Assembly: GCA_951406725.2 (NCBI GenBank)
Contig: OX597829.1
Span: 47,864,001 to 47,928,000, forward strand
Length of the DNA stretch: 64,000 nucleotides
Source: Octopus vulgaris
Taxonomy: Eukaryota
Direction of reading: 5' to 3'
A program made the position numbers and the translations under genes. Every line of letters starts with the position of its first letter. Within the stretch, counting starts at the first letter, position 1. The notes under the pieces were generated by a model. The model did not search any database, had not been told where the DNA came from, and saw only the letters and a list, made by a program, of their open reading frames with translations. Positions 211-38,173 of the stretch are shown in pieces.

Positions 211-994
211 CTATATCTATCTATCTATCTATCTATCTATCTATCTATCTATCTATCTATCTATCTATCTATCTATCTATCTATCTATATATATATATAT
301 ATATATATATATATATATATATATATATATATATATATATATATATATACACATGTAAGCACACAGTCACATATATATATATATAACTATGTGTGTTACG
401 GGGTGTGTGAGTATGCTCATAGACAGACAGACAGACTGAGAAACAGACCGACTGGCAGACAGATAGACAGATAGGTAGAACGATCTGCACATAGAGAAAG
501 AGAGACAAATGACGCCTTTCTTCACATGATCGAACCAATTGAATCGTATAATGATGGGCGCGACTTTGACTATAAAAACACAGGTATTTTGAGACCATTG
601 TATGAGTGTCTCTCCTTCTTTTCCGACTCGCCTCTCTCTCCCCCTCACATCTCTCTCTACAAATGTACATACATACATACATGCATACATATATTTATAT
701 ATATGTATATATATATATATATATATATATATATAAGTTTAACAATTAAGGATAATCTCTTAATAAGGGATCTTAACAAGAAATTATCGGGTAGCTAGCG
801 TGAAAACCTCATAAAAGAAAAGAATCCGAAAATAATTTTTTTCTTTTGAACAAATTAATTATATCTATATTGTATAGAGGGCATTATTACACATAAATGC
901 CTCACACTAGGAGGGACAAAGTCATTACTACCAAAATTATACTAATCATACCCAAATGCAGTTTTTCAAAGCAAGACATTTAAAAAATGAATTT

Positions 995-1052
995 AGTTCT
1001 GTATCACCGTGATTTCACATACAACTTGCGTCTAATGATCGTCAGCAGAACT
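995..1052 (-). ncRNA. Type I hammerhead ribozyme (480-bp unit); further copies at 1475-1532(-), 3286-3343(-), 3766-3823(-), 4245-4302(-)
   Basis: Reverse complement of the motif at 1721-1778. Confidence 0.82.
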
Positions 1053-1720
1053 GATTCTGAACACATCATAAATAAACTACCAACCTTACGTAGCGAAGAC
1101 GAACAGACAACTGCTCACTCCGGCCAAGCACATGGAATGTTTATAAATCATATATCCGGTAAATGGCGGGCTTTTTACGAACTGCATGTCGGGTAATGAA
1201 AAGTATTTCGGAATAAGTTTAACAATTAAGGATAATCTCTTAATAAGGGATCTTAACAAGAAATTATCGGGTAGCTAGCGTGAAAACCTCATAAAAGAAA
1301 AGAATCCGAAAATAATTTTTTTCTTTTGAACAAATTAATTATATCTATATTGTATAGAGGGCATTATTACACATAAATGCCTCACACTAGGAGGGACAAA
1401 GTCATTACTACCAAAATTATACTAATCATACCCAAATGCAGTTTTTCAAAGCAAGACATTTAAAAAATGAATTTAGTTCTGTATCACCGTGATTTCACAT
1501 ACAACTTGCGTCTAATGATCGTCAGCAGAACTGATTCTGAACACATCATAAATAAACTACCAACCTTACGTATCGAAGACGAACAGACAACTGCTCACTC
1601 CGGCCAAGCACATGGAATGTTTATAAATCATATATCCGGTAAATGGCGGGCTTTTTACGAAGTTGTCTGTTCGTCTTCGCTACGTAAGGTTGGTAGTTTA
1701 TTTATGATGTGTTCAGAATC

Positions 1721-1778
1721 AGTTCTGCTGACGATCATTAGACGCAAGTTGTATGTGAAATCACGGTGATACAGAACT
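1721..1778 (+). ncRNA. Type I hammerhead ribozyme (second + copy at 2199-2256)
   Basis: Stem I AGTTCTG/CAGAACT (7 bp); core CTGACGA 1728-1734; stem II with GCAA loop; GAAA 1757-1760; stem III ATCAC-G-GTGAT; predicted cleavage after A1771. Confidence 0.85.
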
Positions 1779-3025
1779 AAATTCATTTTTAAATGTCTTG
1801 CTTTGAAAAACTGCATTTGGGTATGATTAGTATAATTTTGGTAGTAATGACTTTGTCCCTCCTAGTGTGAGGCATTTATGTGTAATAATGCCCTCTATAC
1901 AATATAGATATAATTAATTTGTTCAAAAGAAAAAATTATTTTCGGATTCTTTTCTTTTATGAGGTTTTCACGCTAGCTACCCGATAATTTCTTGTTAAGA
2001 TCCCTTATTAAGAGATTATCCTTAATTGTTAAACTTATTCCGAAATACTTTTCATTACCCGACATGCAGTTCGTAAAAAGCCCGCCATTTACCGGATATA
2101 TGATTTATAAACATTCCATGTGCTTGGCCGGAGTGAGCAGTTGTCTGTTCGTCTTCGCTACGTAAGGTTGGTAGTTTATTTATGATGTGTTCAGAATCAG
2201 TTCTGCTGACGATCATTAGACGCAAGTTGTATGTGAAATCACGGTGATACAGAACTAAATTCATTTTTAAATGTCTTGCTTTGAAAAACTGCATTTGGGT
2301 ATGATTAGTATAATTTTGGTAGTAATGACTTTGTCCCTCCTAGTGTGAGGCATTTATGTGTAATAATGCCCTCTATACAATATATATATATATATATATA
2401 TATATATATATATATATATATATATATATATATATATATATATATATATATATATATATATATATAACATATACATATATATATATATACATATACATAT
2501 ATATATATATACACATATATATGAGACAATTGTATGAGTGTCTCTCCTTCTTTTCCGACTCACCTCTCTCTCTCCCTCTCACATCTCTCTCTACAAATGT
2601 ACATACATACATACATGCATACATACATACATATATATATATATATATATATATATATATATATATATACAATTATATATATATATATATATATATATAT
2701 ATATATATATACATATACATATATATATACATATTTGTGTTTGTATGTCTATGATATGTATGTATACACACACACACACACATACATATATATATATATA
2801 CTTTTTTACTAAAGCTGCTAAAACATCACAAAAACTGATTCAGAGTTTCACGTTCCTGTTCGTTGGACAGTTGTGATCAAGACGTGTGTGTGTTTGTGTG
2901 TGTGTGTGTGTGTGTGTGTGTGTTTGGTGTGCGTGCGAGTGTGTGTATGCAAATGTATATATATCATATATATATATATATATATATATATATATATATA
3001 TATATATATATATATATATATATAT

Positions 3026-35941: not shown

Positions 35942-36340
35942 GGCGACGAGCTGGCAGGAACGTTAGCACGCCGGGTGAAATGCTTAGTGATATTTCATCT
36001 GCCGTTATGTTTTGAGTTCGTTTTCCGCTGAGGTCGACTTTGCTTTTCATCCTTTCGGGGGCGATAAATTAAGTACCAGTTACGCACTGGGGTCGATATA
36101 ATCGATTTAATCCGTCTGTCTGTCCTTGTTTGTCTCCTTGTGTTTAGCCCCCTGTGGTTAGTAAAGAAATAGTTATTTCTTCTGCCGTTATGTTTTGAGT
36201 TCGAATTCCACCGAGGTCGACTTTGCCTTTCATCCTTTCTGGGTAGATAAATTAAGTACCAGTTGCGTACTGGGGTCGATTTACTTGACTGGCTCCTTCC
36301 CCAAACATTTCGGACCTTGTGTCTAGGGTAGAAAAGAATA
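35942..36340 (+). mobile_element. Tandem dimer of SINE S2
   Basis: Two units; flanked by AGAATATAGCTATTAAA direct repeat. Confidence 0.85.
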
Positions 36341-36626
36341 TAGCTATTAAACGCTTGATGATTACAAGAGATAAGAACCTCCCCAAAAACCTTCCCACGC
36401 CGTGGCACAAACTGCCTGTGTATGGAAGACATCATTCACATGATTAGAAGCTGTTCAGAAAACAATTATGCAAAGTACTATTAACCTATAGGACATGACA
36501 TTGCTGCCCAAATCGTTTAGAATGTTATCCACAAGAAGGAAACTCCTGGCAATCATACAAAAGACACACCAGAACCGGAATGTAGCCAAGCCTTTATAAC
36601 TACGGAATAGGAGTGGAATATACTAT

Positions 36627-37044
36627 GGCGTTGCGGTAAGTAGCTTGCTAACGAACCACATGGTTCCAGGTTCAGTCCCACTGCGTGGCACCTTGGGCAA
36701 GTGTCTTCTACTATAGCCTCGGGCCGACCAAAGCCTTGTGAGTGGATTTGGTAGACGGAAACTGAAAGAAGCCCATCGTGTATATATATATATATATATA
36801 TATATATGTGTGTGTGTGTGTGTGTGTGTGTGTGTGTGTGTGTATATGTTTGTGCATCTATGTTTGTCCCCCCAACATCGCTTGACAACCGATGTTTATG
36901 TCTCCGTAACTTAGTGGTTCGGTCGAAAGAGATTGATAGAATAAGTGCTAGGCTTACAAAGAATAAGTCCTGGGGTCGATTTGCTCGACTAATGGCGGTG
37001 CTCCAGCATGGCTACAGTCACATGACTGAAACAAGTAAAAGAGT
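36627..37044 (+). mobile_element. SINE S1
   Basis: Matches family. Confidence 0.82.
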
Positions 37045-37844
37045 ATGAAGTAAAGAGAGACTCTGTAATAAACAAATAAGCTTGGTGTTGTTCTATGTGA
37101 AAGAATAAAAAATTTCATGGATTGCCGTCGGAGTCATCTACTGGCCGATGTGAATGTCTTCTCAAAAGGTTTGGAAAATAAAACAGCCATAGTGAAACGA
37201 AACCACCAGCATTTGTATACAAGTTCCATAGGTTTTTTTTATTGTGGCGATTATCATAGGTGTACTGGGTTATGGAATAAAAATATTTACAAAAAGCTAA
37301 ACTGGAAATGCTAGGTTTTCAAAGAAAGAACGAATCAAACTGACTGAAATTATCCAAATCGAATTAATTATTCACACAGTGTGTTATGTAAGACATTTCA
37401 AATTTTCTCCGTTTGGGTTGATTGAACTGAAATATCTACGCACAATCACGTGAATATATAAGAGGTACGAAAAGACATGCAAATAAAAAGTTATTACGCA
37501 AGATGGTGTACTGAAGAGACGCGTACGGCCATTATGTAAGTGCAACATTCATGTACTAACATGCGCACAGTTACCCATACACACATTCGCAAATCCCCGA
37601 GACGGATCTGAGTCAAGAGCTTTGTCACTGTGCCCGTGATTCGGTTTGAATTCTGCAAAGAAATAATTTTCTTAAAAGATAAATACATACACTTATACAC
37701 GCATACACACACTCACATATATACATACACACACAAACTACATATGTATATGTATATATATATATATATATATATATATATATGTATATACACTCACACA
37801 TACATATATACATACATACAAAATATATATATATATATATATAT

Positions 37845-38173
37845 AAGTTTAACAATTAAGGATAATCTCTTAATAAGGGATCTTAACAAGAAATTATCGG
37901 GTAGCTAGCGTGAAAACCTCATAAAAGAAAAAAAATCCGAAAATAATTTTTTTTCTTTTGAACAAATTAATTATATCTATATTGTATAGAGGGCATTATT
38001 ACACATAAATGCCTCACACTAGGAGGGACAAAGTCATTACTACCAAAATTATACTAATCATACCCAAATGCTTTGAAAAACTGCATTTGGGTATGATTAG
38101 TATAATTTTGGTAGTAATGACTTTGTCCCTCTTAGTGTGAGGCATTTATGTGTAATAATGCCCTCTATACAAT
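37845..38173. mobile_element. Short fold-back copy of the 480-bp family (no HHR reached)
   Basis: Left arm from taagtttaac to cccaaatgc; inverted arm to ccctctatacaata; TGC microhomology at the turn. Confidence 0.87.

Follow-up and report, generated by a model that had tools for sequence, protein, structure and literature searches.

Staggered head-to-head insertions of hammerhead-bearing units in (TA)n of Octopus vulgaris, probably twin-primed in the manner of Penelope-like elements

In the parts of PMC8557442 covered here, Penelope-like elements are described as partial tandems with an inverted, 5'-truncated copy and a 30-40 bp tail at one end, inserted in (TA)n targets (stated for Naiads) by a mechanism that is called open, and the covered parts of PMC3846280 report the same layout and propose antisense self-priming. 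In vitro, the Poseidon protein of Anolis carolinensis cuts and extends both strands of AT-rich DNA, using two internal RNA start sites separated by the length of the genomic tail, and it does so without requiring the hammerhead cut (PMC11167929; Frangieh 2024). Retrozymes, according to the portions covered of PMC7229834 and of Li et al. (bioRxiv 10.64898/2026.07.22.740005), derive from the pseudo-long terminal repeats (pLTRs) of Penelope-like elements, and PMC4209133, in the part covered, describes minimal hammerheads of truncated Penelope-like copies, with motif pairs 100-700 bp apart on opposite strands in Schistosoma. Moreover, such elements are active in an octopus, and inverted pLTRs with short extensions are known (covered parts of PMC13282606 and PMC8969392). 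The present work deals with hammerhead-bearing repeat units inserted in (TA)n within a stretch of 64,000 nucleotides (nt) of Octopus vulgaris (assembly GCA_951406725.2, contig OX597829.1, positions 47,864,001 to 47,928,000), the whole of which is referred to as the window.

Seven insertions were followed in the window, four of family A (A1 to A4) and one each of families B, C and D. All seven consist of two head-to-head arms within (TA)n, joined 5' to 5', with one long and one short outer end; an inverted, 5'-truncated copy is present in each, the tail extension is confined to one end, and the fold point differs in every copy, as the initial annotation had proposed. These non-coding units with two fixed outer ends are probably non-autonomous Penelope-like pLTR elements of the retrozyme type, twin-primed by a Penelope-like enzyme from two marked internal RNA sites. 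Elements were sought by comparing the window with itself and by applying a 40-nt end probe to the segments between TA runs; the sense strand was defined as the one bearing the hammerhead motif, and end positions were counted from the predicted hammerhead cut, the TA letters common with the target being included. The self-comparison bore out both the coordinates and the head-to-head layout in (TA)n that had been annotated. The probe flagged 11 of 73 segments, with all seven insertions, 57233-57576, 62813-63018 and 42491-42795 among them, and also two simple-repeat matches; the layout is thus not due to chance. TA runs occupy both flanks in 9/9 elements tested, within which a target-site duplication, an optional feature of Penelope-like insertions, would be indistinguishable from the repeat, and partial or full tandem copies are seen directly in A1, A2 and B and, through permuted arms, in C. 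The features of the four families are as follows:

736-1661, minus strand: A1 long-end arm, about 1.9 tandem 480-nt units, its 3' end (+269) at the left TA run.
1661-2379, plus strand: A1 short-end arm, about 1.5 units (478 nt here), its 3' end (+136) at the right TA run.
1718-1778, plus strand: minimal type I hammerhead motif of family A, core at 1728, predicted cut after 1771 (in the next unit, after 2249).
1985-2038, plus strand: long-end signal within a family A unit, a 14-16 bp AU-rich hairpin, then a motif common to family B, then the end site.
3027-4605: A2, with the long-end arm at 3027-4435 (minus strand, about 2.9 units) and the short-end arm at 4435-4605 (plus strand).
8322-8721: A3, representing a diverged subfamily (89% to A1), with arms 98.6% alike that fold at position 8586, on the helix-III palindrome of the hammerhead; the tail measures 121 nt.
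37846-38171: A4, arms 37846-38071 (minus strand) and 38069-38171 (plus strand), overlapping by 3 nt, the short arm starting 14 nt upstream of the long arm.
14609-15734: B, unit of 559 nt, long-end arm 14609-15057 (minus strand), filler of about 9 nt, short-end arm 15067-15734 (plus strand).
9166-9882: C, unit of about 535 nt, long-end arm 9166-9414 (minus strand), short-end arm 9414-9882 (plus strand), predicted cut after 9720.
13128-13501: D, short-end arm 13128-13437 (minus strand), long-end arm 13438-13501 (plus strand), predicted cut at 13187.

The non-coding family A unit measures 480 nt and occurs as two to three tandem units per arm, each with a type I hammerhead motif. In A1, A2 and A4 the long end lies at +269 and the short end at +136, so the common starting point and the second fixed point about 133 nt inside, previously claimed for all four copies, hold for these three; in A3 the long end comes 5 nt earlier, the tail carries small deletions and the offset is 121 nt. 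Fold points, given as the 5' start of the long and of the short arm, are 299/368 in A1, 295/439 in A2 and 42/28 in A4, and in A3 both arms fold at the hammerhead helix-III palindrome. Family B carries one hammerhead motif per arm (predicted cuts at 14895 on the minus strand and after 15536 on the plus strand), with ends at +200/+288 and a tail of 88 nt; family C, which is older (arms 77-92% alike), ends at +160/+275 with a tail of 115 nt, and D at about +60/+90 with a tail of about 30 nt. These offsets agree with the values of about 87, 114 and 30 nt annotated for families said to share the layout and to be unrelated; the layout stands, and the latter description does not apply to A and B, which share end signals. 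Also as annotated, no outer end in the seven insertions coincides with a predicted hammerhead cut. The long end lies on the left in all four family A copies, an arrangement without significance (1 in 8). A1 is flanked by a direct repeat of about 120 nt with a few differences (598-710 and 2530-2640); this repeat was considered as a target duplication and rejected, as it looks like an older duplication which A1 entered. The short-end arm of D (13128-13440, minus strand), a single copy in the window, bears a tRNA-like A box, a degenerate B box, (AAT)n and a hammerhead motif before its Penelope-type 3' end, and may represent a tRNA-headed short interspersed element moved by a Penelope-like enzyme; ARAGORN reported no tRNA, the head of D included.

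A minimal type I hammerhead motif is predicted upstream of the 3' ends in all four families, by a scan for B, C and D and by hand for A, whose motif missed the stem-II filter of the scan. The scan gave nine matches in the window, distributed over B, C, D and two further families, whereas five shuffles yielded 0-2 apiece; with Rfam, no match reached the gathering score in the window and, by E-value within 700-16000, only hairpin look-alikes were obtained. The repeat units lack a long reading frame, and these copies are not autonomous Penelope-like members. The 150 frames compared with Pfam (147 of 379 passing the filter, plus three added) yielded one RVT_1 match at 42840-43910, outside these elements, and one further marginal match. 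Exact-pattern scans of metagenome contigs and prokaryote genomes gave no match, and thus neither extra loci nor a partner open reading frame.

The pairing of a long with a short end was found in seven of eight well-resolved palindromes (P 0.035 for an independent and equal choice of sites) and, once the old elements E, F and J are added, in 10 of 11 (P 0.006), these being figures from a small sample and a simple null. The further elements concerned, with a relative of family C, are:

62738-63089: H, a palindrome within (TA)n whose two arms have a single end point in common, a counter-example without tail extension.
57233-57577: F, an old staggered fold-back, arms 70% alike, offset of about 126 nt.
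42491-42795: E, an old staggered fold-back, its left end lost in an assembly gap, offset of at least 46 nt.
16827-17075: J, a weak staggered fold-back with a 28-nt arm match, offset of about 38 nt.
57608-57911, plus strand: G, the family C relative (77% over 128 nt), which terminates at the hairpin and motif of the long end.

A hammerhead core was looked for in F and none was found. A solo copy of H at 44258-44437 ends about 8 nt earlier and has a degenerate hammerhead-like stretch upstream (region 44150-44437).

Each of the two ends carries its own conserved signal. Aligned over the whole unit, A and B are poorly matched (score 53; shuffles 34 ± 5, maximum 46), and the best 20-mer match anywhere between the two units, 16/20, falls in register at their long ends, a result equalled by 0.0009 of random anchor pairs, or about 0.01 after 12 comparisons. 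The short ends of A and B share a 14/20 motif (0.007), and the cross pairs of long with short ends gave no match (0.09-0.56). The long end of C also matches (0.008 for A and C, the other long-end value being 0.03). Within a family, the motif shared by the long and the short end is weak (7/15, 8/15, 11/15). In addition, the long end is preceded, 15-23 nt away, by the end of an AU-rich hairpin in A, A3, B and C, and at a somewhat greater distance in G, with z scores from -2.0 to -5.8 in these five, and in A3 two changes in its stem keep the pairs; hairpins at the short end fold weakly (z -1.0 to -1.7). When covariation across families was computed for the long-end hairpin, the structure set by hand was out of register, so that its 43% paired positions, no better than controls, weigh neither for nor against the hairpin. 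Sharing both the hairpin and the 16/20-nt motif at the long end, A and B are thus not unrelated. A stem closing the tail and bringing the two starts together was also considered and proved not robust, the expected number of pairs coming to 0.45 for A, 1.8 for A3 and for C, 4.6 for B and 0 for F.

At the ends, 1-5 alternating T/A letters are common to element and target, which brings in the leading alternative, namely that the protein defines a single start, the long site, and that the short end is a target-pairing site at which the other nicked (TA)n strand enters the RNA through a TA-like stretch, in the manner of L1 twin priming. For the latter, Ostertag and Kazazian in 2001 reportedly found that both target strands prime, with a 5' inversion and short overlaps at the joint, the first start being the poly(A) end and the second variable. 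Unlike L1, the present insertions have two internal, fixed starts and arms with overlapping sequence. In favour of a single start, the family A short end is the unit's best (TA)n mimic (8/9 letters), with five shared alternating letters, a number reached by 4 of its 480 positions, the short ends of C and E have four shared letters, and hairpins at the short end fold weakly. Against it stand the 14/20 motif common to the A and B short ends, the absence of the ATATAT at +327 of family A from the loose ends listed for public contigs (see below), the B short end, which lies a few letters past its TATATA stretch, and the D short end, with only two shared letters. This alternative is judged rather unlikely; base pairing with the target may help to fix the family A short end.

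Priming from two marked sites would proceed in four steps. A tandem or circular transcript would first be made from units whose tandem arrangement is directly observed, and a Penelope-like reverse transcriptase/GIY-YIG protein acting in trans, predicted to be a dimer, would then nick both (TA)n strands, as has been shown for the anole element (PMC11167929). Priming would take place from one nick at the long site, which lies 15-23 nt beyond the AU-rich hairpin, and from the other nick at the short site, aided by 2-5 nt of TA pairing; at this step the end positions, their signals and the letters shared with the target are read from the sequence itself. Finally, each complementary DNA strand would stop at a variable point, and the two, whose separate templating is described below, would be joined 5' to 5' through the overlaps of 0-3 nt, the small filler or the native palindrome observed at the junctions. 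The sequence between the two sites would constitute the tail, with a family-specific length free to reach 133 nt. A more speculative extension, which we hold only tentatively, is that the Penelope-like dimer is asymmetric, each subunit reading its own RNA signal (hairpin and motif at the long site, motif at the short site) and priming one target strand, the spacer between them being a free module that parasite RNAs have stretched to 133 nt. If so, every two-armed insertion would have one long and one short end, the genome would record the whole double-priming reaction, and a minimal two-signal RNA would define the needs of the enzyme.

It is improbable that the two ends are instead two processed RNA 3' ends, produced by termination or cleavage, with reverse transcription beginning at the very end of two RNAs. 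The arms of A1 differ in one T run in both units (6,6 versus 5,5) and those of A4 differ at one site that is variable across family A, a pattern compatible with two RNAs; such differences may equally reflect different units of a single transcript, and the A1 T run may be an assembly error. Furthermore, the tandem arms read through both sites, and in PMC11167929 a longer RNA 3' end left the main product unchanged.

Less probable still is the self-priming or fold-back explanation, the antisense model of PMC3846280 as given in the part covered, in which the first arm, through folding of a strand back on itself, serves as template for the second. In A1, A2 and A3 the short arm lies wholly inside the long arm, A3 folds on a native palindrome, and the arms share private variants (both changes of A2 and all 11 changes of the A3 short arm), all of which fold-back would explain; the shared changes point to one event from one source. 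Nevertheless, in A4, B, C and D neither arm is a colinear part of the other, each having sequence which the other lacks in that order (14, 307, 306 and 269 nt of the short arm unmatched, respectively), and the tail is absent from the match. Since the short arm extends beyond the colinear match, each arm in these four was read from the full template; these non-nested insertions argue against the published self-priming model, whose covered description does not fit their head-to-head joint, and the A4 arms differ, besides, at the family-variable site. The joints themselves share 0-3 letters, with the filler of about 9 nt in B and the native helix-III palindrome in A3.

In order to look beyond this assembly, the family A unit at 1662-2135 was compared with contigs of four public runs (X1, X8, X15 and X17), representing three organism labels and three studies; all loose-end figures are those among the 24 of 237 rows listed. 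Loose (TA)n ends accumulate at 1912, which corresponds to the family A short end plus six TA-like letters that the aligner runs through, in 37, 13 and 17 contigs of X1, X8 and X17, respectively, and at 2038, the family A long end, in 11 contigs of X1. Two small rows (three contigs and one contig) carry TA letters on the 5' side at other places. No loose contig end at the predicted hammerhead cut and none at the 6-nt ATATAT at +327 is among the rows listed. All four runs contain tandem joints, and a single X8 contig displays a new head-to-head joint, 1786/1992; steps in contig depth near both ends were left aside, contig depth being a poor measure. Family A is also present in runs that are presumably of RNA, and two metatranscriptome runs with a small share of it were left aside. 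The fixed end points annotated from this assembly thus recur outside it at the short end in three runs and at the long end in one, and the palindromes find a counterpart in that one joint and in both end sites, in contigs rather than raw long reads. An assembly artefact from chimeric fold-back long reads, for which the solitary head-to-head joint among the rows listed might speak, has a negligible probability, because a fold-back chimera would be expected to have mirrored flanks and equal ends and the flanks are unmirrored in 9/9 elements tested, the arms end at different, staggered points and differ by up to 23% in old copies, and contigs of other runs carry TA junctions at the same two points together with a head-to-head joint.

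Several facts weigh against a twin-primed origin and temper its acceptance. The stagger is not universal, as H (62738-63089) demonstrates, and three of the seven insertions (A1, A2 and A3) would also fit a simple fold-back. The short end of C matches neither that of A nor that of B (0.56, 0.82), the hairpin regions, which were chosen by eye, fold whichever strand is taken, and the family A short end falls on a (TA)n look-alike, in contrast to the starts of PMC11167929, which have no target homology. The assignment of the sense strand depends on predicted ribozymes, and among the 150 frames compared with Pfam neither a Penelope-type protein linked to the elements nor a GIY-YIG domain was found. 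As regards the public contigs, the long end is represented in one of the four runs, neither TA end of X15 is among the rows listed, and one of the runs is possibly the source sample.

When compared with EN+ Penelope-like elements in the covered parts of PMC8557442 and PMC3846280, where inverted pLTRs with a short tail occur as the initial annotation had stated, the insertions are alike in their partial tandems, inverted head-to-head copy, extension at one end, (TA)n targets and minimal hammerhead in the repeat, and differ in that the copies here have no reverse transcriptase/GIY-YIG frame. The tails of A (133/121 nt), B (88 nt) and C (115 nt) exceed the 30-40 bp reported there, a range into which D (about 30) and J (about 38) fall. 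The proposed likeness to Poseidon (PMC11167929) extends to two internal starts downstream of the hammerhead, cutting and extension of the two target strands, an AT-rich target, a spacing equal to the tail, a cut that is not needed and a predicted dimer. In contrast, the Poseidon sites are placed in the first codons of an open reading frame, near an AC-rich stem-loop, are 30-40 nt from each other and show neither homology to the target nor a strand preference, whereas in the present elements, with non-coding RNA and an AU-rich hairpin, 1-5 TA letters are common with the target, the spacing is wider and long pairs with short. With non-LTR retrozymes the elements have in common non-coding tandem units of a few hundred bases with one type I hammerhead per unit; insertion ends, inverted arms and tails are not described for retrozymes in the covered parts of PMC7229834 and bioRxiv 10.64898/2026.07.22.740005. 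The hammerheads resemble those in the covered part of PMC4209133 in their short palindromic helix III and the extra base after the core, A and B differing in that helix II lacks its usual basal G-C pair. Naiads are recognised by the lack of a canonical hammerhead and by an N-terminal endonuclease, and the predicted minimal hammerheads of A to D point away from that clade. In general, the elements function in the manner of Penelope-like insertions and are consistent with the non-autonomous retrozyme class.

The basic layout, the idea of two starts, the extension of both strands and the unused hammerhead cut have largely been published (PMC11167929), which limits the surprise. The annotated notion of two defined internal priming sites used on the two target strands is therefore not new for the most part; the recurring ends, the separate templating and a conserved signal proper to each end support it, priming itself being what we infer from them, and it needs to be amended in that the families share end signals and that target pairing may help at the family A short end. 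What is added are tails in non-coding units that reach three to four times the 30-40 bp previously reported, together with the non-nested arms in four of seven insertions, the long-end signals across families and the long-short pairing in seven of eight. Within the open-access literature searched, outside which subscription journals and Repbase notes lie, no account of long tails or of twin priming was found for Penelope-like elements, nor were cross-family end signals or a case against self-priming. The origin of the inverted repeats and tails, called open in the covered part of PMC8557442, has been only partly answered in vitro in PMC11167929. In this context, short, young, high-copy families provide a genomic test, which favours separate copying of the arms over self-priming; moreover, the spacing of the start sites is not limited to 30-40 nt, and a defined, mutable RNA signal is indicated.

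Other repeats of the window end in a related manner. Two one-armed families with hammerhead-like motifs, of five copies each, have a single fixed 3' end and no inverted arm. The first, of about 210 nt and bearing a hammerhead motif (4708-4917, 14337-14509, 51480-51689, 57962-58170 and 61181-61367), has its 3' end fixed within 3 nt in (TA)n, and three copies have the same 5' limit; the second, related and with a degenerate hammerhead-like core (2-209, 4960-5081, 6645-6829, 9969-10113 and 30476-30700), ends in TA-type repeats in most copies. A lone hammerhead motif with a palindromic helix III lies at 28540-28650, followed 49 nt later by a 3' end at (TA)n. To the right of B, an AT-rich segment of about 476 nt is duplicated in tandem (15780-16230 and 16255-16700, 99.7% alike over 312 nt). 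The RVT_1 match (E 3e-11) belongs to a 5'-truncated long interspersed element (LINE) at 42840-44030, which ends in short repeats and (TA)n. Fragments at 20270-20800, 22630-23170 and 23850-24230, beside long (TAA)n runs and without a Pfam match, are presumably 3' pieces resembling R4/Dong-type LINE endonuclease ends, and 19370-20900 and 21800-23250 are two copies of one block. Finally, 46300-48100 is a decayed coding stretch, DNA transposase-like by eye and with a mariner-like piece inside, which has no Pfam match in the frames scanned.

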